A DNA stretch of 64,000 nt, taken from NCBI GenBank assembly GCA_965203175.1, contig OZ241867.1, forward strand, positions 192,001 through 256,000. The letters run 5' to 3'. Both the position numbers and the translations under genes were made by a program. Positions within the stretch are counted from its first letter, which is position 1, and every line of letters starts with the position of its first letter. Positions 8,891-25,158 of this stretch are shown one piece after another. Origin of the DNA: Candidatus Latescibacterota bacterium. Its GTDB lineage: Bacteria; Latescibacterota; UBA2968; UBA8231. The notes under the pieces are model-generated. The model was not told the DNA's origin. It worked only from the letters and a program-made list of their open reading frames with translations, and searched no databases.

Positions 8891-8921
8891 TAATTTTGGT
8901 GTGAACAGCTTACAAAAATTA
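8891..8921. promoter_or_regulatory. AT-rich imperfect inverted repeat in the divergent glyA/xylulokinase intergenic region (candidate operator)
   Basis: TAATTTTGGT-N11-ACAAAAATTA, 9 of 10 arm positions complementary. Confidence 0.35.
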
Positions 8922-8936
8922 CGGCGGAGCATTTCC

Positions 8937-10505: not shown

Positions 10506-10663
10506 GGCGCAGTACAACACAAAAAAGATCGAGTTATATGCTAGGCCCGTCGGCATCTAAAATGGGTACTGGAAACGCAATGTTGATCAAACGGGTTTGT
10601 TATTAACGAACATAGTGGACAAGGCAACAACTCGGCTTGGTAGCTCGATGTAGAAGAAGCCGC

Positions 10664-10697
10664 TTGACACAGGGCCTTTTTTTCAACTATATATCAT
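10664..10697 (+). promoter_or_regulatory. Possible sigma70-type promoter upstream of the envelope cluster
   Basis: Perfect TTGACA at 10664-10669 followed by AT-rich TATATATCAT 18 nt downstream; -10 assignment is imperfect. Confidence 0.4.
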
Positions 10698-10817
10698 ATT
10701 TTTCACCACCTTGCGATGTCGCGAGCCCTGTATAAGACGGACATTCACAAGGTTGTAATACTGCTCTATGATCATTGAATTGGCTGCGACAAAAAGAGCG
10801 CAGGTTTGCGCGGACAG

Positions 10818-12494
10818 ATGGCTACTTGCTGGGCCGTGACGGTGATTGTCGGGCTGATGGCCGTCGATTCATGGGCTGTGAATTCAGCCGTGCTGGCCAG
10901 AGTCGGGAGCGAAGTCATTCTGGTAGATGACTTGCTCCGCGCCGGGCGCAATATGCGTCGTTTTGCAGCGGGAAATGCGCGGGAAATGCTACAGCCTTTT
11001 ATCGATCGCAAGCTTCTGGTCTTAGAGGCAAAGGCAAAGGGTTTGGATCAGCACCCCGACGTGGTCGCAATCGTGCAACAGGCGCGCGACCGGAGGCTGG
11101 TCGAGCGTCTGTACGGGGAAGTCACGGGAGATGTTTCTATATCAGAAGAGGAACTGCGATCGCATTTCCACCGGAGCGGATTGCACAAAAAACGAGAAGT
11201 GCGGGCGAGTCATATTCAGGTAGGCAGTCTCGAAGAAGCCCAAGCCGTGCAAGAGCAACTGTGGCAAGGTGCTGATTTTGCAGTACTGGCGCGTGAGCAG
11301 TCCCTCGATCGCACATCGGCGGCCAAAGGTGGAGACATGGGTTTCTGGCAGGAGGAGGAAGCACAGCACAGCGGGTTTGTCGCCGAGCTTTTTCACCTGC
11401 CGGTTGGCCAAGTGTCCGAACCGTACCGCAACTCGCAGGGAACCTACCACCTGATCAAGGCCGATGAAGAGCGCTACGTCAGTTTTGAGCGCCAAAAGAA
11501 GATGCTGCGCCAAACGCTGGAAAAGCAGCAAAAAAAAGATCGCTGGTCCAAATACTTAGCCGACCAAAAAACGCACTTTGGTTTTTCAGTAGATGCCCAG
11601 GTATTGGGCGTATTGTTGCAGCGGGGGCGATTAGCTGAAGGCGGTGTGCCCGTGCTAGAAGCAGGAGACCACGCGCGCATCCTGCTGAGCTATAGTGGAG
11701 GGAACATCGACCTGAACGCGTATATGGCTTTGGTAGAGGAGGCCGAACCCAAGCGCCGTCCCCACGCCATAGATAGCACTGCCGTGGTCGAATTTGCCCA
11801 AGACGAAGTACTGCGCAAAATCCTGCTGCCTCTACTGGCCCAACAACGGGGATTGGATCGCGAGGAAGCGGTGATTGAGTTCGTCCGAGATAAGCGCGAA
11901 GAGGCCCTAGTCGAGATGCTGCGGCGAACGGAAGTAGAAGAACACTTTGTCACAGAAGAACAACAGCGCGTTTTATATAGAGATTTGGCAGACGAATTCA
12001 CTCTGCCAATGCGCACGTTTTTTGCCGGTGCCTTGGTCAATTCGGAACCAGCTTCGCGCGCCATCGCCCAGCGCGTGCGCGCCGGCGAGGATATGGCTGA
12101 GATCATGTGCGAGTATCCGGCATTTAAAGGACGCGTGCGTCAGTTCGACATATTTAACTTCACGCTGGCTGACACGGCGACGGCCCAAGGCGCTATGGCC
12201 ACCATGATCCAAGCCGTGCGGGGTGTGCCGATTGGTGGCATCGAGGGTCCGCTCCCCATCCAGTTGAGCGGCGATATGAAGGGGTATCTCGTGCTCGAAG
12301 TACTGGCGATGCGTCCGGAAAAGACCCTCTCTTTTTCTACACCCAAGGTGCAGTCCAGAATATGGCGTCAATTGCGCTACGCCCATCGGCACGCGATTGA
12401 AGAAGACTTTGATAGCTATCTAGATGAGTTGAGGCATAAATATAGGACTGAGATAGTTGTCGATGAACAGGCCCTGTCTAATCTGGAAAAGTAG
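10818..12494 (+). CDS. Exported parvulin-type peptidyl-prolyl isomerase / chaperone (PpiC/PrsA/SurA-like)
   Basis: Signal peptide; VRASHIQV...GADFAVLAREQSLD..SAAKGGDMGF...VSEP...YHLIK rotamase domain; repeated helical chaperone segments and a second, degenerate parvulin-like domain. Confidence 0.85.
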   Translation: MATCWAVTVIVGLMAVDSWAVNSAVLARVGSEVILVDDLLRAGRNMRRFAAGNAREMLQPFIDRKLLVLEAKAKGLDQHPDVVAIVQQARDRRLVERLYGEVTGDVSISEEELRSHFHRSGLHKKREVRASHIQVGSLEEAQAVQEQLWQGADFAVLAREQSLDRTSAAKGGDMGFWQEEEAQHSGFVAELFHLPVGQVSEPYRNSQGTYHLIKADEERYVSFERQKKMLRQTLEKQQKKDRWSKYLADQKTHFGFSVDAQVLGVLLQRGRLAEGGVPVLEAGDHARILLSYSGGNIDLNAYMALVEEAEPKRRPHAIDSTAVVEFAQDEVLRKILLPLLAQQRGLDREEAVIEFVRDKREEALVEMLRRTEVEEHFVTEEQQRVLYRDLADEFTLPMRTFFAGALVNSEPASRAIAQRVRAGEDMAEIMCEYPAFKGRVRQFDIFNFTLADTATAQGAMATMIQAVRGVPIGGIEGPLPIQLSGDMKGYLVLEVLAMRPEKTLSFSTPKVQSRIWRQLRYAHRHAIEEDFDSYLDELRHKYRTEIVVDEQALSNLEK

Positions 12495-12636
12495 TGGCTC
12501 TGCGTTTCTACCCCTAGACGAGCCCAGATCTCTCTACTCTAAATGCGGAAGGAGGTGAATGGATACAGCGTTCGCAACTGCAACTGCAGGAGCAGAAAGA
12601 ACAATATCTCTAATTCCATCAGATAAGGAGAAAAAG

Positions 12637-13566
12637 ATGCGCAAAAACGCACTCATAGCAGCAATGTTGTCCGTGGCACTGGCTAGCTTCGCCTGGGGCC
12701 AGTCCAATGCCAACGGCATCGGTTACTTCGCCTTAGAGGTGCCTACTAATGTTACCATCACCATTGATGGCGACGATGGCGACTGGGCGTGGTTCGACCC
12801 CATTTTCACCGTTGGTCCCGACGAGATGTATGAAATCCAGAAGGCCGAAGTGCTGGACAAGAGCGATCTCGACGTGGCCATCATGACGGCGTGGACGGGC
12901 ACGGACCGCGACAACAGGCTCTACGGCTTTGTGCGCGCCACCGACGACACGCTAGTCGTCACCTCCGACGTCTTTGACGACGGCTGGCGCGACGATGATC
13001 TCGAGATCATCACTGACGCCAACGCCAGCGGCGGTCCACACGACGGCGACGGCGAGTCAGGCACGCGCGCTGAGGGGCAGCAGTTTACCATGCATTTGCC
13101 AGTCCCCGGCGTGTATGAAACGCCCTATGGCGGCGACGGCTCTTGGTGGTTGCGCTGGCAGGTGGTCGAGGAAATCCACTGGATGGATGAGTTTGCCGAG
13201 TCCAGAGTGACGACCAATCCTCCGGGAGCGACCACGGGTTCGACCAACGTCACGGTCAACTACGAGTACAGCATTCCCCTCTGGGATTACGCGTCGTTGG
13301 ACGGTGCGGATAACAGTATCCGCCACGAAAACGAGGCTGGGCAGATCATCCGCCTGACCTATCAGTTGAACGAAGCGGATAATCCCGAAGATCGCCGCAC
13401 CCACCAGCTAGCAACAACCGGTGAGGACGGCGCTTCGGGCAACTGCGATGTCTGCTCGGAGTACACGCTGCTCGGAGCCGACGAGTACGAACGCGCCGAC
13501 GGCGGCGCGGGCACCGCAGTGGAATCCAAGAGCTGGGCAAAAATCAAAGCGACCTTCAACGACTAA
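12637..13566 (+). CDS. Acidic secreted protein with a CBM9/DOMON-like fold and a C-terminal AVESKSWAKIK motif
   Basis: TAAGGAG RBS; signal peptide MRKNALIAAMLSVALASFAWG; ITIDGDDGDW, LYGFVRATDD, DDLEIITD and YEYSIP resemble CBM9-like/DOMON sugar-binding domains. Confidence 0.7.
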   Translation: MRKNALIAAMLSVALASFAWGQSNANGIGYFALEVPTNVTITIDGDDGDWAWFDPIFTVGPDEMYEIQKAEVLDKSDLDVAIMTAWTGTDRDNRLYGFVRATDDTLVVTSDVFDDGWRDDDLEIITDANASGGPHDGDGESGTRAEGQQFTMHLPVPGVYETPYGGDGSWWLRWQVVEEIHWMDEFAESRVTTNPPGATTGSTNVTVNYEYSIPLWDYASLDGADNSIRHENEAGQIIRLTYQLNEADNPEDRRTHQLATTGEDGASGNCDVCSEYTLLGADEYERADGGAGTAVESKSWAKIKATFND

Positions 13567-13586
13567 CCAAACGGTCCTTTGAACAC

Positions 13587-13618
13587 TATTGGGCGGCGGC
13601 ATCTGCCGCCGCCCAATA
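13587..13618 (+). terminator. Perfect GC-rich stem-loop without a U-tract (mRNA stabiliser or partial terminator)
   Basis: TATTGGGCGGCGGCA-TC-TGCCGCCGCCCAATA, a perfect 15-nt inverted repeat 20 nt after the stop of 12637..13566. Confidence 0.75.
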
Positions 13619-13651
13619 ACCGGCATTGCAATTACACTTCCCGAGGTTAAC

Positions 13652-14386
13652 ATGATGGTACGGTTCGGTGCGTGGCTGTGTTCCCTGGTGATGTTGGCAG
13701 GATGTGGACGTTATTTTGACGGGCCAATTCAGCCAGCTCCGCAGGGACAGCAAGAGGCCGATATGGTGATTAAAGACGATGGCTTGATCATCTATTCGTT
13801 CGAGCGTCTGGAGATCGGTCTGCGCCCTATGACCGACGCCGAATTGAACCGCAAATTCCCACAGCAGTCTACGCAAGGGGCCATATCGACCAATCCCTAT
13901 ACTTTCGGCAACTGGAAGCGCATGGGCGAAGAGTGGATGCCGCCCAAATACAGCATATGGCTGCTAAAAGTTAAAAATTACGCCTATCCTAAAGTCGGCG
14001 TCGATCCTCTCAGGATTGAGCTAATTTCAAAGGATGGATATCGCAAGTACGCGCCCCTAGAACCGCTGCAGATCCTAGAATACTACTATTCGTTTATTCA
14101 GGGATATGCCGGCAACGAATACCGGCGTTTTAACGAGCGCGAAGATATGCTCAAGCGCACTATGTTTCAGGAGCAGATCATCTTCAGCGGCCAAGAATCA
14201 GAGGGTTTTGTCGTTTTTCCGAGCCTCGCACCCGACGTGAAGGAGTTTTCTATCCACGTCAAGGGCATTGCATTGCGATACAATTACCGCGACGAGCCCG
14301 TGGAGACCAAGGATCTAACCTTTCACTTTCAGCGCGAGGTGTTTAAGGGGTTTAAGCCACCGCCCGAACTGGTGAATAAGCAATGA
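13652..14386 (+). CDS. Lipoprotein of unknown function
   Basis: Lipobox MLAG-C; C-terminal SGQESEGFVVFP beta-sandwich-like segment; ATGA overlap with the next gene. Confidence 0.75.
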   Translation: MMVRFGAWLCSLVMLAGCGRYFDGPIQPAPQGQQEADMVIKDDGLIIYSFERLEIGLRPMTDAELNRKFPQQSTQGAISTNPYTFGNWKRMGEEWMPPKYSIWLLKVKNYAYPKVGVDPLRIELISKDGYRKYAPLEPLQILEYYYSFIQGYAGNEYRRFNEREDMLKRTMFQEQIIFSGQESEGFVVFPSLAPDVKEFSIHVKGIALRYNYRDEPVETKDLTFHFQREVFKGFKPPPELVNKQ

Positions 14387-16290
14387 TGGCTTCCTTTCGG
14401 CGAACTGCTTCGGTCGGGCTGATCCTGTCGTTCTGTATTGGGACGGCGGAACTGCGAGCCGATGTCTGGGGGGTCGGCCTAGGTGGACAAGCCTGGGAGG
14501 AACCAGCGCAGACTATGGCGGGGGTAGTTGTAGGCGAAGGGCAAGCCCTGGGGCCGGCTAGCTTTTCGCTTGAGCAGAACATAACTCAGTTTATCGTCTG
14601 GGGAGTCGGCGCGCCCAGCAGTTTTATCGCCGAGGGCAACGGACAGGTGTGGAACAATTCGGCGCGGGGCATTGGGGGGTCTGAGGTCCTAGTGGACGGA
14701 GATGGCACGACCAGCACGGAAAATAGCTTTAAGGAAGTGGGGGTCAATCAGCGCGGACGCATTTTTTTTCTAGATCTCGGGGCTTCGTTTCCAGTTAGCC
14801 AGATTGTTTTTTACCCCCGCGAAGGAGAGGATGAATTCGTCGCCGGTTACGAGATATCACTCAATGACGGGCGCACTTTCGACGCCAATGACTCGCCCGT
14901 TTACGAGGCCGTTCGCCAAGTGACGATCAACCGCGATCCAAGAGTGGATGTGCGCTTCCCGACTCAATTGGTGCGCTTTATTCAACTCAGAGTGCTTTCA
15001 CCGAGCCCCTTTGAACTGGCAGAAATCGAAGTACACGGCGAAGGCTTTGTACCGCGTGGACTCTACGAAACACAGCTCATCCAGTTTGCACAGCCTGTCA
15101 ACTACGGTGCATTGACTTTTCGCGCGCACAGAGTTTCGCTGTCCGAGGAAGGCGAAAGCAGCGCGGGTGCCGACGAGCAAGTGCGGGTGATCGTGCAGAT
15201 GCGCAACGGCGTCGACGAAACGCCTCTCGACTACTACCAAATCGCCGACGTAGAGACCCGGTCGGAAGTGCTGATCAGCAAAGAGGAGTACGAAGAACTG
15301 CCGTTGGTCCTCAAGGGCAGCATTCGCCCGGATGCCACGCACTGGTCCTCTTGGACGGAGCCGCTCATCGCCGACTCTAGTGGCACGTATTCCATTCCGC
15401 TGGATCTGCCGGGGCCGCGCGATTTTTTCCAGGTGCGCCTGCGCTTTGAGGGCAATACCTCCGCCAGCATGCAGATCGATAGCCTAGCCATCGTGCACAC
15501 GCCGCCGTTGGCTGCGCTGGCATTGAGCGAAGTAGCCCTATTGGACGATCCCTTTCCGGCCGGTGGACGCGCGTCCGTTCCGGCCGGTCGGGATACGGTT
15601 TTCACCTACGACATAAAGGCCGACTTAGGCGAGGGAACGGGCTTTGACGGCGTGCGTATCTCGACGCTGATACAGCCCGAATTTCTCAAATTGGAAATGG
15701 GGCACGAGTTGGAGGAGATACAGCCGGATAGCGTGCACGTGGACGATACGGGTTTGCGCGTTTATTTCCCATCCCGGCGCATTAGCACAGGAGAAGATGT
15801 GCGTCTGCGGATTACGTTTCGCTCGCAGGCCCTACTTTTTTCCACCCAGTTTATAGGACAGCTTCTGGATACGACGGGCAGCCTTCCCCAGCGCATTGCC
15901 GAGGGCGACGCGACGCGGGAAGTAGGCACGGACTCGCAGGAGGTAATTTTCCTCGCCAGCGGCGAAAGCGTGCTGCAGTCCTTTGCCGTTTCTCCACCGG
16001 CGATAACGCCCAATGGCGATGGCATAAATGATTCGTCCGTCTTCTCTTTTGTGCTCATCCATTTGGTGCAGCCCGCCGCGGCGGAACTGCTCGTATACGA
16101 TCTTTCGGGTCGCTTAATAAAAAACGTGCTCTCCGATGCGCTGACCGCCGGGCGTTATACCCAGTGGCACTGGGACGGAACGAACAATGCCGGCGATCTG
16201 GTGCCACCAGGGACCTATATCGCCAGAGCCTCAATACAGGCAGCTGCCGACGAAGTCAACCGCATGCGCCTGATCTACGTGGCCTATTAA
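14383..16290 (+). CDS. Secreted discoidin-like protein with a C-terminal TPNGDG/FlgD-Ig domain (paralog 1)
   Basis: Signal peptide; LVDGD..T...FLDLG...LAEIEVHGEG (F5/8-like); ITPNGDGIND...YDLSGR...WDG...PPGTY...VAY. Confidence 0.75.
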   Translation: MMASFRRTASVGLILSFCIGTAELRADVWGVGLGGQAWEEPAQTMAGVVVGEGQALGPASFSLEQNITQFIVWGVGAPSSFIAEGNGQVWNNSARGIGGSEVLVDGDGTTSTENSFKEVGVNQRGRIFFLDLGASFPVSQIVFYPREGEDEFVAGYEISLNDGRTFDANDSPVYEAVRQVTINRDPRVDVRFPTQLVRFIQLRVLSPSPFELAEIEVHGEGFVPRGLYETQLIQFAQPVNYGALTFRAHRVSLSEEGESSAGADEQVRVIVQMRNGVDETPLDYYQIADVETRSEVLISKEEYEELPLVLKGSIRPDATHWSSWTEPLIADSSGTYSIPLDLPGPRDFFQVRLRFEGNTSASMQIDSLAIVHTPPLAALALSEVALLDDPFPAGGRASVPAGRDTVFTYDIKADLGEGTGFDGVRISTLIQPEFLKLEMGHELEEIQPDSVHVDDTGLRVYFPSRRISTGEDVRLRITFRSQALLFSTQFIGQLLDTTGSLPQRIAEGDATREVGTDSQEVIFLASGESVLQSFAVSPPAITPNGDGINDSSVFSFVLIHLVQPAAAELLVYDLSGRLIKNVLSDALTAGRYTQWHWDGTNNAGDLVPPGTYIARASIQAAADEVNRMRLIYVAY

Positions 16291-16317
16291 TGCCCATTTA
16301 AACGCGGAAAACTGAGT

Positions 16318-18267
16318 ATGACGTACAAAGTGGCGCTAGCTCTTTTGCTCTTGGCCCCTTGTTTTGCAAAGGCACAGGTAGAGCGATTCGTGCTAGGTAC
16401 AGGAGATAACGGCTGGGAAGAACTATCCGAGTTGATGGGCGGCATGTGGGTTGTGGACGGCGGTCTGCAGCCCTACGAATTGGATCCAGCGGTCAATATC
16501 GCGCTGGGCGAGAAGAAGGGCAGCTCGCGCGCCGACGTCTTCGGCAACCCTTGGGGGGGAGAACGGGGCGGGACGCAGAACGCACGTCTCATTCCCGGCC
16601 AGCCCGAGGTCCTCGGAGATAACGGCTTTGTATATACAATAGACGGTGACACGACCCGGTCAGTGGCCATTGTCTCCGGCTATTATTACTACAACCTAGG
16701 CTGGGAATTGCCCATCAATCGCATCCGCTTTTTTTCCCCGGCAGAAGGGCGCACCCAGACCGACGACCGCAAGCGGATCACACCGGGTTTACCGCTCAAA
16801 AACGCCTATCCCAAGCTTTATGAAGTTTGGGCTGCAATTGATGGAGAGCGCTTTAAGCGAGGGCAGTTTGACCTTTTACTAGAGCAGAATCTCAACCAAA
16901 CCACGCGCATCGCCAATGCTCGTTTTCCCACTCAGCCCCTGCAGTTCATTTTCATAAGCTTCCCGGAATTGGGCGTCATTGCCGAGGTGGAGTTTTACGG
17001 CGAGGGTTTTGTGCAAAAATCTCAATACCTCTCCAAGGTGATCGACATCGGCGAGCCGGTCAATTTCGGGCGGGTCATGCCCTATTTCAACGGGTTTGTC
17101 AAAGAGAGCATAGACAGCGAACCCGAACTTTTGGCAGAAAGCCCCATCTCCTTTTCGCTGGAAACGCAGACCGGTCGGGACGATACGCCGCAGGTCTACA
17201 GCATCTACACCGAACTGAGAACCGAACGCGAAGTGAGTTTTGCCGAATGGGATAAAGCGCCGTACGATGATTACGTGCGTCCTGGAGCTCAGGGGCCGGA
17301 GCGGCCCGACGTGGACAACTGGAGCTTCTGGTCGGTGCCACAAGAAGCGTCTGCGGGCGAAGGCATAGAGATCCTTTCGCCGGATAATCGGCAGTATCTC
17401 AAAATCAACTTCACGATGGCAAGCGAGGATTTGTTCACCTATGGCCGGATGGATTCGCTGGTCGTAGAATACTCGCCTCTGCTGGTCGATGCGGTCGTCG
17501 GGGAGGTCGCATTACAGGACGAACCACAACCGCTCGGGCGCAAGACGGAAGTACCCTTGGGCGAGGAGCGCATCTTCACTTTTGACGTGCGGGCCGACTT
17601 TGAATCGGAGACCAAGTCGGGTTTTGACGCCTTAAGGCTGCAAACCCCGGGCCGCGTCCAGTTTATAGGACTGGAAATGGGCGACCCCTTAGTCGCTGTG
17701 GAACCCGACAGCACCGCGGAAAAACGGGGCGAACTGATCGTCTATTTTCCGTCCAACCGCATCACAGCTACAGACAACAGGCCGCTGCGGCTGCTGTTCA
17801 AAACGGGTGTCTTCAGTTTTAACGCCCTATTTCAGGGCGAGATATTTGTCGTGGGGGGAGGAGGACAGCCCCAATCTATCGATCCGGGAGATGCCAACGC
17901 GGAGGTATCGACCAATTCCATCGAGGTGCTGGCACTGAGCGAGGAGTTAGATGTGCTGAGCGCATTGGACGTGGGATCAACCGTAGTGACGCCGAATGGC
18001 GACGGACTCAATGACACGTTTGAACTGGCCTATTCACTGCTGGGCGTGCAGGCGAGCCAAGTGGTCTTTGAAATCTACGATTTGCGCGGACGCAAAGTGC
18101 GAACGATATCGACCGTTTCTAGGAGTGAAGGGCGTTATGTCGAAGAGTGGGATGGACGGGGAGAGGGGATGGGGCGCGTGGCTCCGGGCCTATACCTCGC
18201 CCGACTTTCCGTCGAAACGGATGCAGGTGACTTCACGAGTACGCGCACCATTGCGGTGGCCTACTAA
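16318..18267 (+). CDS. Secreted discoidin-like protein with a C-terminal TPNGDG/FlgD-Ig domain (paralog 2)
   Basis: Signal peptide (AKA); TIDGD...IAEVEFYGEG; VTPNGDGLND...YDLRGR...WDG...APGLY...VAY; collinear with paralog 1. Confidence 0.75.
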   Translation: MTYKVALALLLLAPCFAKAQVERFVLGTGDNGWEELSELMGGMWVVDGGLQPYELDPAVNIALGEKKGSSRADVFGNPWGGERGGTQNARLIPGQPEVLGDNGFVYTIDGDTTRSVAIVSGYYYYNLGWELPINRIRFFSPAEGRTQTDDRKRITPGLPLKNAYPKLYEVWAAIDGERFKRGQFDLLLEQNLNQTTRIANARFPTQPLQFIFISFPELGVIAEVEFYGEGFVQKSQYLSKVIDIGEPVNFGRVMPYFNGFVKESIDSEPELLAESPISFSLETQTGRDDTPQVYSIYTELRTEREVSFAEWDKAPYDDYVRPGAQGPERPDVDNWSFWSVPQEASAGEGIEILSPDNRQYLKINFTMASEDLFTYGRMDSLVVEYSPLLVDAVVGEVALQDEPQPLGRKTEVPLGEERIFTFDVRADFESETKSGFDALRLQTPGRVQFIGLEMGDPLVAVEPDSTAEKRGELIVYFPSNRITATDNRPLRLLFKTGVFSFNALFQGEIFVVGGGGQPQSIDPGDANAEVSTNSIEVLALSEELDVLSALDVGSTVVTPNGDGLNDTFELAYSLLGVQASQVVFEIYDLRGRKVRTISTVSRSEGRYVEEWDGRGEGMGRVAPGLYLARLSVETDAGDFTSTRTIAVAY

Positions 18268-18308
18268 ACAGGTTGCGTATAAGCGCTAAACTCTGTCGAG
18301 GATGTACC

Positions 18309-20627
18309 ATGAGGAAATTCGCTGCAATTCGACTTTTGCTCGTCGCCACCCTGTGTGCAGCAGGTGCCTATGCCGACGAACTGCGCCTGAGCAGCCCGGC
18401 GGACTGGCAGACGTGGACCATTCCCAAGGGCACGCTGGAAATTGCCGACGACGGCAGCATCAGCCTGGCGTGGATGCGCCGCAATATAAACGCCGTGGCC
18501 GATGCGGCAGAGTTTTCCCATAGCGAAGGCAAGAAACAGGTTTTTGGTGGTATCCGCGCCGTGAATTCAAATCCCCAAGATGCGGCTAATATTATTGACC
18601 AAGACCCATCGACTTGGTGGCAGCCGTCTGCCGATGATCCGCTGGAAGATTGGTGGATCGAAATCGACCTCGGCCGACCAGTATTGGCACGCAAGTTGCG
18701 CCTTGTCTTTCCGGACTCACCCGACGCCAAGCCCTTTCGCAATTTCACGACTTACATAAGCAACGGTGTAGATACGCGTTATGGCGTGACCTACCACCCG
18801 GTCGCCGTCACGACAACACCCAATGTAGAGAGAGTTTTTGAAGTCGATCTGAAACGAATTGAGATCGGTGTGGCCAGCGGAGAACATCTCATAGAGCAGG
18901 ACACGCTGGATTTTAACCTCGTCCACCACGTGCGCCTAGTGCCCACGGAAAAGAATCCAGGCGCGGCGCTGGCTGAGGTCGAAGTGGATGCACTGGGAGA
19001 TAATCTCGCCATAGGTACAGTGGAACGGGGCGGGTCGGTGCGAGCGGGGCGGAGCGAAGATAAGATCGGGATGATCTTCGATGGGGATGTCAATACCAAC
19101 TGGCGACTTGCCGTCGGTGGTGACCAGGCCAAGGAGGGCAATCTCAGGACCTACGTCGAAGACGGCGATTGGTTCGAATGGGATCTGGGTGCCACGTTCT
19201 GGGTAGACCACCTTTCCCACATAGACCTGGCTGTCGGAGACGGAGAGGGGTCTCGTGGCTCCCACGGGTACGGGGCCAAGCTATTTATCCTCACCACTTC
19301 GGACGGTACGCCGGCCAGCGGCCTGACCAGCGACCGCATTCGCAGCAATTTCGACTACCAAGAACTCAGCGACGTATTCAACGATAGATTCCCCACCCAA
19401 CAGTCGTATCACTTTGCATTCCCGCTGCGGAAAATCCGCCATATCTTCTACCACCGCAGCGGCATTCCGATGCGCCTGCAGATCCGCCAGACGGTTTTTG
19501 AATACATACTCCACGGCGAGGGGCACGTCGCAGCGACGGAAATGATTTCGGACTTCATCGACCTAGGCTCAATGAAGAGCGTGCGCAAGCTGTCATGGGA
19601 CGCCGATTTACCTGCCGGCACGCAGATCGAAATTCGCTCGCAGACGGGCAATACCTTTGAACTGCAGAAGAAGTACTACCATAAGAACGGCACGGAACTG
19701 GACTCGGCCCGTTTTGGCAAGCTGCCCAAGAGCGTGCGCGGGCGCATCGACACCCTCAAGCTCAAAGGGCCGGATTGGAGCGGCTGGAGCCAGCCCTATG
19801 ATTTTCCCGAGGAGGCATTCCTCTCGCCTACGCCCAGACAATTTCTACAACTACAGATTCAACTAGCCAACGACGATCCACAACTGACGCCGGTACTGCA
19901 TTCCCTGACCCTGGAATTCGACGATCCCCTCGTCAGCGGTGGCATTGCTGCACGCATATTGCCGCGCGAGGTCGGACTAGATTCCCTGCAGCGCTTTACG
20001 TATTTGCTGCAACCGACCTTTGTGCGCAACGACCAAGGCTTTGACGAGGTCTTTATCCAAGTGCCGGGCGAGGTGCAAGAGGTTGGCGTCCGAGTCGGCG
20101 GACAGAGCGTGCAGCCGAGGGAAATTGAACTGGCAGACGGGTTGCTAAGAGTCGGACTGCCGGAGCGGGTGTGGGAGGATTCGGTGGAAGTGCTGTTTAC
20201 CGCGCAGGTAACAGCCAATGCCACGCTCTTTGAGGCTTGGGCCGGGGACAGCCAGCAGAATGTGCGCCAAGGCGTCGAACCCTTAGCGCCGCGCTCGATG
20301 ATCGTTTTTGTGCCCGACGTGGCCGGTGGGAATTTGCTGCGCAATGTGCAGGTGACTCCGGTCGTTACGCCCAACGGCGATGGCGTAAACGACGAAGCGC
20401 AAATCGACTTTATCGTGGTCCAGGTTGAGGGCAATCCCAACGTGGATATCTACGACCTAACCGGATCGCACCTGCGGACGCTCGAGCTAGGTGCCGCAGG
20501 TTTCGCGTGGGATGGCCGGGACGATGCGGGAGCGGTTTTGCCGCCGGGTGTGTATATCTGCCGCATCCAGATGGAAGCCGACTCTGGAGACCAGTCGGTA
20601 TATCGCACCATTAGTTTGGCCTATTAA
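18309..20627 (+). CDS. Secreted protein with two discoidin-like domains and a C-terminal TPNGDG/FlgD-Ig domain (paralog 3)
   Basis: Signal peptide (AYA); IIDQDPSTWW...IDLG and IFDGDVNTNW...WDLG; VTPNGDGVND...YDLTG...WDG...PPGVY...LAY. Confidence 0.75.
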   Translation: MRKFAAIRLLLVATLCAAGAYADELRLSSPADWQTWTIPKGTLEIADDGSISLAWMRRNINAVADAAEFSHSEGKKQVFGGIRAVNSNPQDAANIIDQDPSTWWQPSADDPLEDWWIEIDLGRPVLARKLRLVFPDSPDAKPFRNFTTYISNGVDTRYGVTYHPVAVTTTPNVERVFEVDLKRIEIGVASGEHLIEQDTLDFNLVHHVRLVPTEKNPGAALAEVEVDALGDNLAIGTVERGGSVRAGRSEDKIGMIFDGDVNTNWRLAVGGDQAKEGNLRTYVEDGDWFEWDLGATFWVDHLSHIDLAVGDGEGSRGSHGYGAKLFILTTSDGTPASGLTSDRIRSNFDYQELSDVFNDRFPTQQSYHFAFPLRKIRHIFYHRSGIPMRLQIRQTVFEYILHGEGHVAATEMISDFIDLGSMKSVRKLSWDADLPAGTQIEIRSQTGNTFELQKKYYHKNGTELDSARFGKLPKSVRGRIDTLKLKGPDWSGWSQPYDFPEEAFLSPTPRQFLQLQIQLANDDPQLTPVLHSLTLEFDDPLVSGGIAARILPREVGLDSLQRFTYLLQPTFVRNDQGFDEVFIQVPGEVQEVGVRVGGQSVQPREIELADGLLRVGLPERVWEDSVEVLFTAQVTANATLFEAWAGDSQQNVRQGVEPLAPRSMIVFVPDVAGGNLLRNVQVTPVVTPNGDGVNDEAQIDFIVVQVEGNPNVDIYDLTGSHLRTLELGAAGFAWDGRDDAGAVLPPGVYICRIQMEADSGDQSVYRTISLAY

Positions 20628-20668
20628 TAAACAACGTGTTGCGCAGCGGTAAAAAAGGGAGGGAACAA

Positions 20669-23323
20669 ATGGGCCGGAAGTTTTTCGGTGCTCTGCTAAC
20701 GGGTTGCCTTTTGGCAGGTGGAGTGTTAGCCGAAGGCCTGCAATCGGGCTTTCTCAACCCCTATGTCACCAGCGGTGTGCGGATATCGCCCCAGACCATC
20801 ACGCCAACTATGCGGAAATGGTATCTGCCCCAAACGCTCTACGATATCTACGGATGGAAAAACTGGGAGTACACCAACTACGCCAGGGATCGCTACGAGC
20901 GCTATACCGATATCGTGCTGCAGGGCCAGCGCTTTTACGATATCTACGGCAATTACATCACGCGCGGCTGGAAGGTCTACGAGTGGGCGCAACAGCACCC
21001 CACGGAAACGGGCAGCGCGATCGACAAGTCCGTGGAGTTCAACAACTGGTTCAATAACCTAGTCATTTCAACGGCGTCGCAGGGCCAATATCACATGGCG
21101 TTGACCGTGGGCGAGCAACTGAGGACGACGCTGACGCCGATGACCTTTTCCAAACCGCTGTTTAACGGCGTGCAATGGGATTTCCTCTCCGATAAATACG
21201 CCCTGACGCTGCTCGCCTCGCGCACAGACAATCCCGCTCTGGCGGCCACGGCGACCAACCGCGACCAAGGGGCCACGGTGCGGACGATCTTCACCAATCT
21301 GATTGGCCTGCGCGGTACGGCCCAAATCGGCGACTTTATCAAGCTGGGCACGACCTACGTCAATGCCGGGCACTGGAATAGCTCGGAAAGCTTCGGCAAC
21401 AACTCTCTCAAGGGCACGCTCGGCGGCAACCTGCAGGCGGGCAACGTGCAGCGTCTCCTAGTGCGTCTATCCGACGATTCGCCCGAGGACGGCGAAGGAG
21501 GGGCATTGCTCTTTCTGCACCGCGTGTACATAAATGGCGTAGAGCATCCCGAAATCTCCGACCGGGCGCTGGTAGACGGCGGCATCCGGCGGCAGGGACG
21601 TTGGGAGGCCAGCGGCGGCAACAACATCATCATTACCTACGACATCGAGCGCGACTTCACGCCCATTCCCGGCGAAGATGAGATCATCGACTTCAAGGAA
21701 ATCAAAAAGATCGAGATCGAATTGGTCCTAGCCAATGACTATGCCGTTGAAGTCACTTCCAATATGCAGGTCAACAACACGGGCGAGCCTGTATTTTTGC
21801 CCGTCACCCGCGCGGAGAAAAACATCAAAGACGGCTCCAACCAGCGCGTGGTGCGCTTTAGCTACGGCTTGCCGACGGCCAATGAAGTCGCCGGTCTCAC
21901 CATGGAAATCGACGACCTCTTCGGCGGGTTTAACTTGCGCGCCGAATACAATGTCAATCGCAAATACCGCCGCTTTCCCAACCAGAATTTCACCTACAAT
22001 CAGGCGCTGGGGAAAGAAAGCGCGGAGGGCTACTATGCAACGGCGTCGCACAATGTGTACCCGTGGTTTGCCTATGGCGAAATTTTTAGCATGGACCCGG
22101 GCTATCAGACATTCATGTTCGTGCCCGACAGCAACGGGCGCATTAACTACGAAAGTGCTGTAAACAACGTCTACGAATTCGTAGACGACAACGACGACCA
22201 GGACCGCTTTCCCGACTGGCGTAGGCGAGCCTTCAGCAGTTCCTCGTCGGAGCGCTTACTGATCCAACGGGCTGACGTGGCTGTCTTTCCCGGCTATGAT
22301 GAGAACAACGACTTAGTGTCGGACTTCAACCAGAACGACAACGGCATGCCGGACTATCTAGAGCCCTTTGTGCGCTACGATGTCGATCCGCTGGAGTTTC
22401 TCTACGGCACAGACATGAACAACAATACAGTGATCGACCGCTTTGAAAACGACGAGGAAGCGGACTACCCGTATCCCCGCGACCACCGAGGTTACAACTT
22501 CTACGGTGGCGCCGAACTCAAGCCGGGCAGCCGCATAATGGTCGGCCGCATGCGCGAATGGCTGCTGAGCAGCAACCGCCGCAACAAGTCGCTATACGGT
22601 CTGCTAACACTGACTCACGAGGTGCCTCGCCACGGTTTGCAGATGCAGCTCTACAACGGCCTTCGCAGCGTCGAAGACAATATCCCCGAAGACATCATTC
22701 TGTGGGTGCAGGGTCCGCGTACACGGGGCGATATGCGCCCCTTCGTCGATCCCATGATTGCGCAGGATGCGCTGATCAACACCACCTTTCTGAGTGCACG
22801 CACGCGTAAATACGCCCCGCTCAATCTAGAGACCAAGCTGAAGTACGAGATCTATCACCAGCGCGGAGACCAGCAGCCGCCAAACTGGCAGGACGAGAAG
22901 CTCTTCGCGCTGATCACCAAGGCGGATCTGCCCATTCCGGTAGGTAAACACGTGCTGTGGCCTAGGTGGAAACAGCTCTACAAGCGGCGCTCACCCACGG
23001 ATAAAACCGAGCTAGAGAATAACGAGCTGTCGGAAATTTTCTTCTTCGTGTGGCAGCAGGAGCTGATCAGTACAATGCGCCTAGAGTCCGGCATCGAGTA
23101 CGAGATTTTCAGGAATATGGTCGAACGCACCGATCCGCTGCCCGCCGGATACGTGGACGATTTCGAACAGTTCGTGATTGCTGCGCAACTATCCAATCGC
23201 TCGGACTATCTGGGCTATCGCCTGATGACCAACATCGGCGGACGCTGGGAACGGCGCGATTTTCGCGACGAGACGACGACGGATCTGGTGCTGTTTCTGA
23301 GCATGTTTGCCGGATTGCAATAA
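20669..23323 (+). CDS. Large putative outer-membrane beta-barrel protein with acidic Ca-binding-like repeats
   Basis: Signal peptide (VLA); aromatic-rich alternating strands (LESGIEYEIF, YRLMTNIGGRWE, VLFLSMFAGLQ); central DDNDDQD / DENND / DMNNN repeats. Confidence 0.6.
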   Translation: MGRKFFGALLTGCLLAGGVLAEGLQSGFLNPYVTSGVRISPQTITPTMRKWYLPQTLYDIYGWKNWEYTNYARDRYERYTDIVLQGQRFYDIYGNYITRGWKVYEWAQQHPTETGSAIDKSVEFNNWFNNLVISTASQGQYHMALTVGEQLRTTLTPMTFSKPLFNGVQWDFLSDKYALTLLASRTDNPALAATATNRDQGATVRTIFTNLIGLRGTAQIGDFIKLGTTYVNAGHWNSSESFGNNSLKGTLGGNLQAGNVQRLLVRLSDDSPEDGEGGALLFLHRVYINGVEHPEISDRALVDGGIRRQGRWEASGGNNIIITYDIERDFTPIPGEDEIIDFKEIKKIEIELVLANDYAVEVTSNMQVNNTGEPVFLPVTRAEKNIKDGSNQRVVRFSYGLPTANEVAGLTMEIDDLFGGFNLRAEYNVNRKYRRFPNQNFTYNQALGKESAEGYYATASHNVYPWFAYGEIFSMDPGYQTFMFVPDSNGRINYESAVNNVYEFVDDNDDQDRFPDWRRRAFSSSSSERLLIQRADVAVFPGYDENNDLVSDFNQNDNGMPDYLEPFVRYDVDPLEFLYGTDMNNNTVIDRFENDEEADYPYPRDHRGYNFYGGAELKPGSRIMVGRMREWLLSSNRRNKSLYGLLTLTHEVPRHGLQMQLYNGLRSVEDNIPEDIILWVQGPRTRGDMRPFVDPMIAQDALINTTFLSARTRKYAPLNLETKLKYEIYHQRGDQQPPNWQDEKLFALITKADLPIPVGKHVLWPRWKQLYKRRSPTDKTELENNELSEIFFFVWQQELISTMRLESGIEYEIFRNMVERTDPLPAGYVDDFEQFVIAAQLSNRSDYLGYRLMTNIGGRWERRDFRDETTTDLVLFLSMFAGLQ

Positions 23324-23417
23324 CGCCTGACAAATCTGCCTTTGTGCAGTCTGATGTCCGCGCTGGTTAATGGAATTGCATCGACTGCATATTCCCCGTG
23401 ATATGTGCTCTTTTTAT

Positions 23418-25118
23418 ATGCCCATCGTTGCGGTTCTCTTTAGCTGGGGTATGGCGCTGATTGTGGGGTGCTCAAATGAAACTTCCGCGCCATCGACAGA
23501 AGCTACTGCACCCAAGCCCAAATTGGCTAGAAGTACACTGCCGAAATTCGTCGATGCCACTGCCGCTGCCGGCATCCATTTTGCACATGTGAACGGCGGT
23601 AGCGGTCGCTTCTACTACGTGGAGACCTATGGCTCGGGAGCGGCTTTCGTCGACTACGATAGCGACGGCGACGAAGACTTGTACCTAGTCAATGGGGCTG
23701 TATTGCCGGGCTTTTTGGAGCGGCGGGTACCGAAAAACGTTCTATATCGAAACAAGGGCAATGGGAAGTTCGAGGAAATAACAGAAAAAGCAGGTGTCGG
23801 CGATGAGGGGTATGGCATGGGAGTCTGCGCGGGAGATTACGACAACGACGGTCATGTGGATCTCTATGTCACGAACTTCGGGGCCAATGTGCTGTATCGC
23901 AATGACGGCGACGGTTCATTTGCCGATGTGACGGAGACCGCCGGCATCGGCGACGAGCGCTTGAGCATGAGTGCAGCCTTTGCCGACATCGACAACGATG
24001 GCGATCTCGACCTCTACGTTTCCAACAATACCGATTTTACTCTCGAAAACCACAAAGAGTGCAGGCACGGTTCCATACGCGTCTACTGCGGTCCCGGTCA
24101 GTATAAGGGCGCGTCGGGGATTATGTATCGCAACGAAGGGGATGGAAAGTTTGCCGACGTAACGGAAGCAATGGGCGTTTACGACTACCGCTGCCGTCAA
24201 CTCGGCGTAGTGTTTGGCGATTACGACGAAGACGGCGATGCGGATCTGTTTGTCGCCAACGATATGACCCCGAACTTCCTCTTCCGCAACGAGGGGGGGA
24301 CGCGATTTTCCAATATTGGGCTGGATTCCGGCGTCGCCTTCAGCCCGGACGGCAAATCCGAGGCAGGCATGGGCACGGACTTTGGCGACTACGACCGGGA
24401 TGGACTCCTCGACATCGTCGTCTGCAACTTCCAGTGGGAGCACTGTCGCCTGTTAAAAAACGAGCGGGGCGATGTGTTTAAAGATCAGATACACGAATCC
24501 AAACTGGACGAACCGACCTTCTCGACATTGACCTTTGGCACGGACTTTTTCGACTACGACAACGACGGCTACCTCGACCTGTTCCTAGCCAACGGACACG
24601 TCGAACCGAATATAGAAATTATCGACCGCGCCGGACCTTCCTACGCGCAGCGGGATCAGCTATTCCACAACGAGACCGACGGCACGTTCACCGACGTCAG
24701 CGCCGACTCGCCAGGCCTAGCCACCGCTTGGGTCGGACGCGGATCGGCTACCGCCGACTACGACAACGACGGAGACCTCGACCTGTTCGTGAGCAACAAC
24801 AACCAGCGCGGCCTGCTGCTGCGCAACGACGGTGGCAACCGCCAGCACTGGCTATCGGTGCGCACCATAGGCACCCACAGTAACCGCGACGGCATCGGCG
24901 CGCGGATCCGGGTGGTCGCTGGCGACCTACACCAAGTGGCAGAAGTGCGTTCGGGCAGTTCGTATCTGTCGCAGAATGCGCTGCGAGTGCACTTTGGCTT
25001 AGGCACGCACGCGCGGGTGGATCGGGTGGAGATCCGCTGGCCGAGTGGGATGGAGCAGGTATTGGAGGACGTGGCGGCTGATCAGTTCCTCACGGTCCAG
25101 GAGCCGGAAAAACTATAG
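23418..25118 (+). CDS. CRTAC1-family protein (FG-GAP/VCBS repeats plus ASPIC/UnbV domain), probable lipoprotein
   Basis: Seven DYDxDGxxDL-type repeats; C-terminal SNRDGIGARIRV...GSSYLSQ...VHFGLG...IRWPSG; IVG-C lipobox; start uncertain (23370-23451). Confidence 0.9.
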   Translation: MPIVAVLFSWGMALIVGCSNETSAPSTEATAPKPKLARSTLPKFVDATAAAGIHFAHVNGGSGRFYYVETYGSGAAFVDYDSDGDEDLYLVNGAVLPGFLERRVPKNVLYRNKGNGKFEEITEKAGVGDEGYGMGVCAGDYDNDGHVDLYVTNFGANVLYRNDGDGSFADVTETAGIGDERLSMSAAFADIDNDGDLDLYVSNNTDFTLENHKECRHGSIRVYCGPGQYKGASGIMYRNEGDGKFADVTEAMGVYDYRCRQLGVVFGDYDEDGDADLFVANDMTPNFLFRNEGGTRFSNIGLDSGVAFSPDGKSEAGMGTDFGDYDRDGLLDIVVCNFQWEHCRLLKNERGDVFKDQIHESKLDEPTFSTLTFGTDFFDYDNDGYLDLFLANGHVEPNIEIIDRAGPSYAQRDQLFHNETDGTFTDVSADSPGLATAWVGRGSATADYDNDGDLDLFVSNNNQRGLLLRNDGGNRQHWLSVRTIGTHSNRDGIGARIRVVAGDLHQVAEVRSGSSYLSQNALRVHFGLGTHARVDRVEIRWPSGMEQVLEDVAADQFLTVQEPEKL

Positions 25119-25158
25119 GACCATTGTGCCAGAAATCCGCGAAAGGGCAAGGCAAAAC

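Follow-up and report, generated by a model that had tools for sequence, protein, structure and literature searches.

What might an uncultured bacterium do with seven adjacent genes whose products all appear to be exported? This question is raised by a locus from a member of the Latescibacterota, contained in the 64,000-nucleotide stretch of DNA that we analysed (the window). Between positions 10818 and 23323 of the + strand, seven co-oriented genes follow one another, and each translation opens with a hydrophobic N-terminal segment from which export of the protein is predicted. The upstream TTG and GTG starts listed by the ORF finder are probably too long, and we preferred the starts at 10818, 12637, 13652 (the lipoprotein) and 20669 because they fit signal peptides; counted from the probable true starts, the intergenic distances are 142, 85, -4, 27, 41 and 41 nt in turn. 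The order of this sub-type is CBM9-like protein, lipoprotein, three paralogs (parA, parB and parC) and barrel, with a parvulin gene alongside. Seven co-oriented, exported genes had been announced by a first-pass annotation and are borne out, and its statement that no SusC/SusD, usher, secretin or BamA/TpsB is found among them holds by sequence. The claimed absence of any core Por/Gld/Spr component has to be qualified, for the tails of the three paralogs are matched by models of T9SS sorting domains, namely CHU_C, FlgD_ig and the C-terminus of PorU. Nor does the block end at 23323, as had been proposed: co-oriented genes continue to 31180.

The module is real and conserved. In the 6.58-Mb genome, 62 barrel genes are spread over 40 loci, all of which have tailed paralogs no more than 10 kb from a barrel (exactly three of them at 30), a distance that covers only 15.2% of the genome. 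The gene set was also present in all three loci fetched from a genome belonging to another family of the phylum (G002), and the barrel was detected in 95 of the 151 Latescibacterota genomes searched. The earlier remark that such proteins recur as paralogs in this phylum was right and, with 62 barrels in one genome, understated. Sequence and profile comparisons revealed no match to an already described system, and the literature searched contained no description of the cassette.

The last of the seven genes (20669..23323, + strand) encodes an 884-aa protein of an unnamed family that AlphaFold2 modelled, as had been guessed, as an outer-membrane beta-barrel: the model (mean pLDDT 73.2, pTM 0.72) is nearly all beta, large and plug-less, and its best fold matches are large outer-membrane barrels, at a generic level only. 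A Pfam scan of 47 barrel members gave no meaningful family (chance-level E-values of 0.053 and 0.18, in one member each), NCBIfam contained no relative and a profile search of the PDB no match. The genome contains 32 Plug-domain matches, all of them outside the barrel genes and more than 10 kb away from any. The N-terminal segment of the protein is conserved, and around residues 514-613 it is rich in Asp and Asn, with two putative EF-hand-like loops suggested there by inspection of motifs.

Upstream of the barrel gene, and on the same strand, lie three collinear paralogs: parA (14383..16290, 635 aa), parB (16318..18267, 649 aa), which has the same architecture, and parC (18309..20627, about 772 aa from the ATG at 18309), which has an extra N-terminal discoidin-type domain. 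Alignment of parA with parB runs end to end (30% identity, E 1e-75), and residues 191-649 of parB align with residues 361-784 of parC (27% identity, E 8e-27). All three contain the motif TPNGDG(I/L/V)ND and end in VAY or LAY. Their C-terminal domains match FlgD_ig and CHU_C, both with a cut-off of 27 bits, at 27.3 and 24.9 bits for parA (which also matches the C-terminus of the PorU model), 29.5 and 32.3 for parB, and 29.9 and 32.2 for parC; one or both models were matched at E<=0.001 by 56 of 57 non-redundant paralogs. The N-termini of parA and parB gave no significant Pfam domain match, and the F5_F8_type_C match of parC (27.0 bits) is slightly below its cut-off of 28.2, which relatives of the parC class attain; F5/8 type C (discoidin) models were matched by 21 of the 57. 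The family numbers 248 genes in the genome. A barrel gene is found no more than 10 kb away for 129 of them but not for the remaining 119, so that tailed proteins do not need a barrel.

The first-pass annotation had asked about SprA, PorV and GldKLMN elsewhere in the genome. SprA (618 bits summed, cut-off 200) and PorU (632.5 bits, cut-off 420) are present, and next to PorU lies a PorV-like gene whose 147.5 bits are under the cut-off of 250. The GldL, GldM, GldN and PorP/SprF models found no match in the genome; since their controls were silent too, these searches show neither absence nor a complete T9SS. SprA occurs in 146 of the 151 genomes of the phylum, including two barrel-negative families, f2 (30/30) and f3 (19/19).

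The gene at 12637..13566 (+ strand) encodes an exported, stand-alone protein without a Pfam match, for which a CBM9/DOMON-like nature had been suspected. Its fold backs the guess: the best Foldseek matches of the AlphaFold2 model (pLDDT 83.6) are CBM9 structures, namely those of Caldicellulosiruptor (7nwn, E 1e-10, target-normalised TM 0.73) and of Thermotoga maritima Xyn10A (1i82, TM 0.74), with E-values from 1e-10 to 5e-10. The beta-sandwich is shared with these family 9 modules, whereas the sequence is only 14-15% identical and the cassette protein is not part of an enzyme: it stands alone, opens with a signal peptide and has at its C-terminus the conserved tail TAVE-x2-SW(G/A)xIK-x3-F. By analogy, it is a putative sugar binder. 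The tail is conserved in 40 of its 45 paralogs in the genome; 35 of the 45 genes have a barrel gene no more than 10 kb away, at 33 of the 40 loci. Behind this gene and before that of the lipoprotein lies a perfect inverted repeat (13587..13618) with two fully complementary 15-nt arms (13587-13601 and 13604-13618) and a 2-nt spacer; no T-run follows, so that it is not a canonical intrinsic terminator. A perfect stem of at least 9 bp no more than 90 nt downstream is found for 14 of the 45 CBM9-like genes, compared with none of the 18 lipoprotein, 11 of the 248 tailed paralog, 2 of the 62 barrel and none of the 43 parvulin genes, a recurrence that suggests higher expression of the CBM9-like gene. 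Contigs from all four RNA-library runs fall on parts of the cassette, and in run X1 pieces of the CBM9-like gene had depths of 113.8 and 70.2, those of the lipoprotein and paralog genes 2.8-8.0; we take these depths as a hint only, because contig depth is unfit to rank genes and such libraries may contain DNA.

Two smaller parts accompany these proteins. The parvulin gene (10818..12494, + strand; about 558 aa when read from the ATG at 10818 rather than from the TTG at 10806 given by the ORF finder) encodes a SurA/PpiD-like periplasmic chaperone whose single PPIase domain occupies residues 143-220 (48.9 bits for Pfam Rotamase, with a cut-off of 21.7); the NCBIfam models PpiD, PrsA and SurA match below their cut-offs, in the parvulin part only. 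Of the 43 paralogs that the genome contains, 34 have a barrel gene no more than 10 kb away, and the family is represented at 33 of the 40 loci. The 244-aa lipoprotein (13652..14386, + strand; lipobox LAGC, Cys18 counted from the ATG at 13652) belongs to an unnamed family without matches in Pfam, NCBIfam or the PDB, its nearest Atlas clusters being unnamed clusters annotated as lipoprotein. Fifteen of its 18 paralogs lie within 10 kb of a barrel gene, at only 14 of the 40 loci, so the protein is dispensable at 26. A predicted complex of barrel and lipoprotein scored 0.47 (the best of three controls 0.00), on a scale where the pass mark was attained for 58 of 80 solved complexes and for 2 of 110 mismatched pairs, passes at or below 0.60 comprising only 7 of those 80 and both mismatches; at least 4% of the contacts agreed between runs and the partner pLDDT was at least 74, which tentatively suggests that the two may touch. 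These predictions covered the pair of barrel and lipoprotein, and the docking of the three paralogs and display of the WxxIK protein by that pair, as first proposed, would be hypothetical. A small lipoprotein encoded in the operon of a barrel of comparable size recalls LptD-LptE and MtrB-MtrA, and LptD and MtrB are among the Foldseek matches of the cassette barrel; these pairs differ in having no sequence relation to the cassette, with TM-scores of about 0.15-0.24, and in that the cassette lipoprotein is so often missing.

The genes beyond 23323 and around the other loci provide the functional context. On the same strand follow two lipoprotein genes, one of the FG-GAP/ASPIC (CRTAC1) type (23370..25118, lipobox IVGC; FG-GAP_3 169.6 bits, UnbV_ASPIC 86.5 bits) and one with TPR families (25045..26697, lipobox ALGC; its true start is probably downstream of the listed GTG), an enzyme of the DHDPS family of class I aldolase type (27156..28070, 79.8 bits) and a sugar-type ABC importer (28087..31180) composed of one solute-binding protein (SBP_bac_1 129.6 bits) and two permeases (BPD_transp_1); an FGGY sugar kinase gene lies upstream of the cassette. 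The TPR lipoprotein is a frequent companion, with a gene within 10 kb of the barrel at 26 of the 40 loci. We scanned the 117 co-directional, contiguous neighbours of the 40 loci against Pfam and found transporters and sugar-catabolic enzymes, other loci including dehydratases. In raw counts, there were 14 DUF6785+DUF6784 proteins, 4 enolase-superfamily (MR_MLE) proteins, 3 sulfatases, 2 FGE-sulfatase proteins, 4 PhyH, 3 solute-binding proteins, 3 ABC permeases, 1 SSF symporter, 1 PL4-type lyase, 1 rhamnose mutarotase and 1 HpcH aldolase, and 34 had no family. DUF6785-like proteins, polytopic by hydropathy, are encoded by 56 genes, one of which lies within 10 kb at 28 of the 40 cassettes. The cassette is thus wired to inner-membrane transporters, its lipoprotein is present at only 14 loci and the T9SS-type tails of its paralogs point to SprA, PorU and a PorV-like protein encoded elsewhere, so that it can hardly be called self-contained, as it first had been.

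These neighbourhoods favour, among the functions first proposed, that of a TonB-receptor-free analogue of a polysaccharide-utilisation capture system, and we would give an even chance to the locus being one copy of a multi-copy, Latescibacterota-specific outer-membrane cassette for such capture and uptake. At the cell surface, the cassette would most likely capture a polymer, which is probably a glycan, and hand fragments of it inward. All parts would be exported by Sec, as judged from their signal peptides. The three paralogs would be lectin-type proteins and, their C-terminal domain being in all likelihood a T9SS sorting domain, would exit by way of SprA, the only such translocon of the genome, together with PorV and PorU, to end on the surface, on or near their own barrel. 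The CBM9-fold protein would be the binder made in greatest amount, as its hairpin hints, and its tail may attach to a partner common to all cassettes. The barrel, lacking a Plug domain, would be the conduit, with the lipoprotein, where present, possibly in or on it, and the SurA-like parvulin would act, as its family suggests, as periplasmic chaperone for the barrel or the paralogs. Products would then cross the inner membrane through the adjacent ABC importer or, at 28 of the 40 loci, through the DUF6785/DUF6784 protein as the likely carrier, and reach the adjacent catabolic enzymes. Against this capture reading, a barrel of such size needs a gate and none was identified, the lipoprotein is found at a minority of loci, nearly half of the paralogs are barrel-free and the discoidin match of parC is sub-cut-off. 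The cassette itself contains no glycoside hydrolase or lyase, the PL4-type protein being the only lyase among the 117 neighbours, and no energy coupling is evident at the window locus, with no ExbB or ExbD gene nearby and any TonB-box-like role of the conserved N-terminus of the barrel being hypothetical.

The main rival, rather unlikely but still credible, is that the cassette would serve surface display only, its barrel anchoring or shuttling the three T9SS-tailed proteins to build an adhesive or binding structure that imports nothing. The logic would be that of SprB with SprF, or of PorP, in Bacteroidota, where genes for type-B cargo adjoin a cognate PorP/SprF-like gene, as for SprB and SprF of Flavobacterium johnsoniae. 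The best tail scores are indeed those of the type-B model CHU_C, for parB and parC, nearly all relatives carry such tails, and both the TPNGDGxND motif and the position beside a dedicated barrel gene, at every one of the 40 loci, are shared with SprB/SprF; nor was an alternative PorP/SprF-family gene found in the genome, the control being silent. However, the cassette barrel, with its roughly 880 aa, belongs to an unrelated family and is some three times the size of PorP/SprF, and none of the 47 members scanned matched PorP_SprF. It is also accompanied by three cargo paralogs per barrel, by a CBM9-fold protein, a lipoprotein and a parvulin, and by a host outside Bacteroidota in which GldL, GldM and GldN went undetected (controls silent too). 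Display alone would not account for a dedicated chaperone, for a CBM9-like protein whose tail is of another kind, or for the inner-membrane transporters and catabolic enzymes that so regularly accompany the cassette, and 119 of the 248 tailed genes have no barrel nearby.

We consider it improbable that each barrel and its parvulin form a small translocon private to the cassette and dedicated to export of the three paralogs, much as SprA acts together with PorV and a PPIase. The SprA structure was reportedly solved with a PPIase subunit, the parvulin gene is near the barrel at 33 of the 40 loci, the silence of the GldL, GldM and GldN models (and of their controls) agrees with a private pore, and SprA (6h3i) is among the fold matches of the barrel. 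Its Z of 10.4 is no better than that of dozens of unrelated barrels (top Z 13.7), and a comparison of the barrel-family profile with the genome's own SprA returned a probability of 0.4%. Moreover, the genome already has a full-length SprA, PorU and a PorV-like gene, and SprA is present in every genome of the barrel-negative families. Very improbable, finally, is a role of barrel and TPR lipoprotein as exit channel for an exopolysaccharide, like AlgE-AlgK, BcsC, PelB or PgaA: the frequency of the TPR gene and the PgaA, BcsC and PelB barrels among the generic fold matches would suit it, whereas the 117 neighbours contain importers and catabolic enzymes instead of any glycosyltransferase, synthase or polymerase, and the TPR protein is a separate lipoprotein missing at 14 of the 40 loci.

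If the capture reading is true, the cassette would be a non-homologous counterpart of the polysaccharide-utilisation locus that works without a TonB-dependent receptor, and would probably carry out a food capture that other bacteria achieve with very different parts. With the SusC/SusD loci of Bacteroidota it has in common that a genome contains dozens of paralogous loci and that each combines an outer-membrane barrel and binding proteins of the cell surface, next to genes for transport and catabolism. Unlike them, its barrel has neither a Plug domain nor a TonB-dependent-receptor match, there is no SusD-like protein, and its binders, instead of being lipoproteins, are T9SS-tailed proteins and a tail-tagged CBM9-fold protein; most of its loci carry their own SurA-like chaperone, and the neighbours scanned include no hybrid two-component or ECF regulator. 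FG-GAP/ASPIC companions also occur beside SusCD pairs, and at 22 of the 40 loci the gene of such a lipoprotein lies within 10 kb of the barrel.

The locus consists of a tight run of genes on the forward strand, extending from 10818 to 31180 of the window. It opens with a gene for a parvulin protein with one PPIC-type rotamase domain (10818-12494), followed by that of an exported protein of 310 residues with, according to its model, a CBM9 fold (the CBM9-like protein, 12637-13566), a perfect hairpin with 15-nt arms and a 2-nt loop (13587-13618), a gene for a lipoprotein with the lipobox LAGC (13652-14386), three paralogs called parA (14383-16290), parB (16318-18267) and parC (18309-20627), and BAR (20669-23323), coding for a predicted outer-membrane protein of 884 residues. 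On the 3' side of BAR are found a pair of genes for an FG-GAP/ASPIC (CRTAC1-type) lipoprotein and a TPR lipoprotein (23370-26697) and, past the latter, those of a DHDPS-family enzyme and of a sugar-type ABC importer, with which the run ends. Signal peptides and lipoboxes were assigned by eye from the translations. The G+C content of the block containing the cassette (10000-30000) is 0.555-0.575 versus 0.61-0.64 in both flanks, and the sign of the GC skew flips at the borders of this block, matching the change of coding strand. Promoter and terminator scans of the locus found no more sites than in shuffled sequence and are thus uninformative on the ends of the operon. Farther on, the reverse strand carries a heavy-metal efflux set (34396-46084) made of an HMA-domain P-type ATPase, an RND pump (ACR_tran), an outer-membrane factor and a membrane-fusion protein that carries heavy-metal-binding domains; the set is ordinary and unconnected to the cassette.

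The genome, a single contig of 6.58 Mb, contains this cassette many times. Its ORFs of at least 70 residues were called and searched with the window proteins, then with profiles built from the matches, which gave 62 BAR genes distributed over 40 loci, 248 genes of the tailed paralog family, 45 CBM9-like, 43 parvulin and 18 lipoprotein genes, together with the recurring pair of FG-GAP/ASPIC (59 copies) and TPR (53 copies) lipoprotein genes. Tailed paralogs are present within 10 kb of all 40 BAR loci, and 30 of these have exactly three. At the same distance, which covers 15.2% of the genome when counted from the BAR genes, a CBM9-like gene and a parvulin gene are each found at 33 of the 40 loci, a TPR gene at 26, an FG-GAP/ASPIC gene at 22 and a lipoprotein gene at 14. 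Three gene orders recur: that of the window (CBM9-like, lipoprotein, A, B, C and BAR, with the parvulin alongside); CBM9-like, three paralogs, two BAR genes and parvulin; and parvulin, paralog, BAR, another gene, two paralogs, BAR and CBM9-like. Assigning each paralog to type A, B or C from its best match is valid for the closest cassettes only.

The genome-level search, performed on Latescibacterota genomes, found BAR in 95 of the 151 sampled: every one of the 63 genomes from the family of the window has it, and three sister families, represented by 30, 19 and 2 genomes, gave no BAR. A first look gave up to 147 BAR candidates in one genome. In a genome of another family the same set of genes was present at the three loci fetched, and in more distant families BAR is retained, often as tandem copies, and the profiles of the other parts, which are specific to the window's genome, match less strongly or not at all. 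Among 1.84 billion cluster representatives, 712 proteins match BAR at E≤0.001 and 185 at E≤1e-30. A wider range reaching into the Gemmatimonadetes was considered and rejected: all five NCBI records checked under the name "Gemmatimonadetes bacterium" (loci L017, L046, L053, L057 and L091), which carry many copies of the barrel, group with the window's own Latescibacterota family, so the phylum names attached to database matches of the BAR family are unreliable.

The structure model of BAR (pLDDT 73.2, pTM 0.72) is nearly all beta. Foldseek ranks at the top the large barrels SlpA, MtrB, FimD and LptD, with a TM of about 0.2, and an exhaustive structural aligner matches the model to many unrelated barrels with Z of at most 13.7. 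Taken together, the model and the results of both aligners identify BAR as a predicted large outer-membrane barrel with no specific relative. Family searches agree: Pfam applied to 47 BAR members at E≤1 gave no family at a meaningful E-value and two matches at chance level only, a PDB profile search with the family matched no chain, and the NCBIfam scan of nine locus proteins returned no known relative of BAR. The nearest named Atlas cluster, DUF6029, was discarded, its score of 0.89 being below the level of more than a lead and Pfam not confirming it. In the alignment of the family, the N-terminal segment is strongly conserved, and an Asp/Asn-rich stretch contains two loops which read like EF-hand calcium sites.

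Known outer-membrane systems were then compared with BAR one family at a time. No Plug or TonB_dep_Rec match, which would indicate a TonB-dependent receptor or SusC, was obtained in the window's BAR and 46 relatives at E≤1, although the Plug search gave matches in the E. coli, Caulobacter and Bacteroides controls. The genome itself has 32 Plug matches, of which none is inside a BAR gene or within 10 kb of one; with about 15% of the genome lying that close to BAR, its two kinds of outer-membrane system, Plug receptors and BAR loci, are kept apart. None of the nine locus proteins matches a SusD-family (SusD/RagB) model of Pfam or NCBIfam, neither the window's BAR nor its 46 relatives match PorP_SprF (PF11751), and Pfam and NCBIfam gave no match to the POTRA, Usher and Secretin domains, looked for as signs of BamA/TpsB proteins, ushers and secretins. 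FhaC, BamA, TamA and FimD are only generic barrel fold matches, with an rmsd of 8-11 Å over about 260-320 residues. The fold likeness of BAR to SprA is likewise generic (Z of 10.4, where unrelated barrels reach 13.7).

The three paralogs may relate the cassette to type IX secretion (T9SS). parA and parB align end to end with 30% identity, and the alignment of parB to parC covers the C-terminal 420 residues of the latter with 27% identity. The last 80 or so residues of all three match CHU_C, FlgD_ig and the C-terminal domain of the PorU model. With the Pfam CHU_C model (cut-off of 27), parB and parC reach 32.3 and 32.2 bits and parA 24.9 bits; with the NCBIfam models, the tails reach 18.4-25.9 bits for type B (TIGR04131, cut-off of 35) and 16.9 bits for type A (TIGR04183, cut-off of 23). 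Among 57 non-redundant relatives of the paralogs, 56 have a match to CHU_C, FlgD_ig or both at E≤0.001, and discoidin (F5/8 type C) models match 21; the sole match of single-sequence PDB searches was that of FlgD to the paralog tail. The genome encodes about 250 such tailed proteins. It also has one SprA (2481570-2487959 of its contig; 618 bits summed, cut-off of 200), whose gene, encoding 2129 residues, is the only match of TIGR04189, as well as a PorU (2958213-2961962; 632.5 bits, cut-off of 420) directly followed by a PorV-like gene (2962060-2963109; 147.5 bits, below the cut-off of 250). GldL, GldM (two models), GldN and PorP/SprF (PF11751) gave no match in this genome, the control genomes being equally silent. 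Judged by its gene content, the genome appears to have the outer-membrane half of a T9SS. SprA is present in 146 of the 151 Latescibacterota genomes, including those of families without BAR; because of this distribution, and because hhalign gives a probability of 0.4% to the relation between the BAR alignment and the genome's own SprA, BAR is not a core part of the T9SS but a lineage-specific addition beside T9SS-type cargo.

The protein encoded at 12637 had been described in the first-pass annotation as CBM9- or DOMON-like, a proposal which holds at the level of the fold. Its model (pLDDT of 83.6) finds as best structural matches the CBM9 modules 7nwn (E of 1e-10) and 1i82 (E of 4.5e-10), with a TM by target of 0.73-0.74, and the DOMON-type haem subunits rank after them, so the predicted fold is that of CBM9. 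No CBM9 match of Pfam or NCBIfam is found in its sequence at E≤0.01. Of the 45 CBM9-like proteins of the genome, 40 end with TAVE-x2-SW(G/A)xIK-x3-F (13522-13566 in the window), and no membrane helix follows this tail, which stands 3 to 8 residues from the end of the protein. The core of the tail occurs in the last 16 residues of 93 of the 5036 gene models, versus about 8 expected. Since its other carriers include exported PD40/WD40 propellers of small size and Cache-domain proteins, it looks like a general C-terminal tag, and like a sorting or anchoring tag without prior description; we know of no signal that it matches. Genes of these other carriers often form tandem arrays, flanked by those of FG-GAP plus FlgD_ig proteins and of sigma-54 activators (e.g., at the fetched loci L146, L147 and L148).

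The hairpin following the CBM9-like gene is also a recurrent element. A perfect stem of at least 9 bp lies 3' of 14 of the 45 CBM9-like genes, versus none of the 18 lipoprotein and 43 parvulin genes, 11 of the 248 paralog genes and 2 of the 62 BAR genes. These hairpins (13587-13618 of the window and 13 others) are G+C-rich, perfect and without a T-run. Their position suggests differential expression within the operon, and the pattern is compatible with a CBM9-like message that would be stabilized or attenuated and a protein that would be made in excess. Four RNA-library runs, one from each of four studies, contain contigs falling on portions of the cassette, much of which is not covered in run X3 and in parts of X5 and X9, where the joints are of low quality. 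In one run, the depth is 113.8 and 70.2 on the CBM9-like gene versus 2.8-8.0 on the lipoprotein and paralog genes, values that cannot rank genes since they are contig depths, and DNA was possibly present.

The protein encoded at 10818 has an N-terminal hydrophobic segment, seen by eye in the translation, and exceeds the Pfam cut-offs for Rotamase (48.9 bits), Rotamase_2 (48.0 bits) and Rotamase_3 (47.3 bits), which makes it a predicted periplasmic chaperone of parvulin type belonging to the SurA/PpiD/PrsA group. It is assigned to this group and not to a subfamily, because none of the NCBIfam equivalog models of SurA, PpiD and PrsA reaches its cut-off. Pfam, NCBIfam and PDB gave no match for the lipoprotein, and the Atlas leads for it (LssY_C, DUF4352 and DUF5067; 0.77-0.81) were dismissed as being at chance level. 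Complex prediction for residues 130-895 of BAR with the mature lipoprotein gave a score of 0.47, the best of three controls being 0.00, with a contact agreement of at least 4% and a partner pLDDT of at least 74 in the runs. The pass mark of this procedure is reached by 58 of 80 solved complexes and by 2 of 110 mismatches; passes at a score of 0.60 or less comprise only 7 of the 80 solved complexes and both passing mismatches, and the prediction is thus weakly suggestive of a BAR-lipoprotein complex.

What surrounds the loci concerns to a large extent transport and carbohydrates. In the window, an FGGY kinase is encoded upstream of the cassette, and an aldolase-family enzyme and an ABC sugar importer downstream, on the same strand. 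Scanning against Pfam the 117 neighbours that are co-directional and contiguous with the 40 loci yielded, as raw counts, 14 proteins with DUF6785 and DUF6784, 4 enolase-superfamily proteins, 4 PhyH proteins, 3 sulfatases and 2 FGE-sulfatase proteins, 3 solute-binding proteins, 3 ABC permeases and 1 ABC ATPase, 1 SSF symporter, 1 PL4-type lyase, 1 rhamnose mutarotase, 1 HpcH aldolase and several sugar-type oxidoreductases, while 34 were without a family. The DUF6785/DUF6784 protein, of about 650 residues and polytopic by hydropathy (e.g., 7223-9208 on the reverse strand of the fetched locus L095), has 56 copies in the genome and is found within 10 kb of 28 of the 40 cassettes; it is a candidate inner-membrane permease family.

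Polymer uptake across the outer membrane is explained by small porins and by TonB-dependent receptors, with SusCD in Bacteroidota and the CUT loci of Proteobacteria, and Latescibacterota are common in sediments, sea water and sponges. The reading best supported by our data, to which we give about even chances, is that the cassette is a capture and uptake system resembling in its logic a polysaccharide utilization locus (PUL) but built from non-homologous parts. According to its main rival, the cassette would do no more than display proteins at the surface, BAR anchoring cargo of a type-B-like kind; the sole difference between the two proposals is the passage of anything through BAR, and we consider display alone rather unlikely. 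That BAR could be a private secretion pore, in a genome which already encodes SprA, fits the data less well than these two and appears improbable, and so, to a still much greater degree, does its use for the export of polymers, which also agrees less well with the data.

Extending the capture and uptake reading, we tentatively propose, as a joint statement whose parts are less likely than not to all be right, that Latescibacterota evolved a machine for nutrient acquisition independent of the SusCD/TonB-receptor solution. It would comprise a giant plug-less barrel with calcium loops, whose family has been encountered in none of the other phyla examined, fed by three lectin-type proteins delivered through the T9SS and by an abundant CBM9-fold protein held by the previously unrecognized sorting tail TAVE-x2-SWGxIK; each barrel would have its own SurA-like chaperone, the cassettes would be coupled to a new inner-membrane permease family (DUF6785/DUF6784), and diversification of the whole would have led to about 40 copies per genome, each specific for its substrate.

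A literature search conducted mostly at the level of titles and abstracts found no description of the cassette or of the BAR family and no paper naming DUF6785/DUF6784. The portion consulted of one article (PMC12993501) makes no mention of outer membrane or secretion, and the portion consulted of a study on Latescibacteria metabolism (PMC4454575) assumes passage through "non-specific porins". The cassette would mean that the whole phylum carries an expanded alternative to known outer-membrane uptake, with 40 loci and 62 barrels in one genome. If capture and import are true, the transport channel would be of a new type, T9SS cargo would have a new role, and both the sorting tail and the permease family would be candidates for novelty; the cassettes would also help to predict the diet of these uncultured bacteria, with one subtype per substrate. 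Even if the cassette serves display only, it is a large machine that has no name, and four or five of its protein families are devoid of present annotation.

Finally, divergent paralogs of the barrel (about 30% identity) occur two or three in tandem at four sites of the genome, namely 2791416-2812676, 5636664-5657523, 6152039-6173342 and 6508481-6526567 in approximate contig coordinates (fetched loci L104, L120, L129 and L130), the neighbours of the last being barely scanned. A TPR protein of about 1085 residues with a YfiO/BamD-like region is present at the first three, and DUF4159 at the second and third. ExbB/ExbD genes, absent at the window locus, adjoin the divergent barrels at the first and third sites, and these tandem barrels may be an energized variant of the cassette system.
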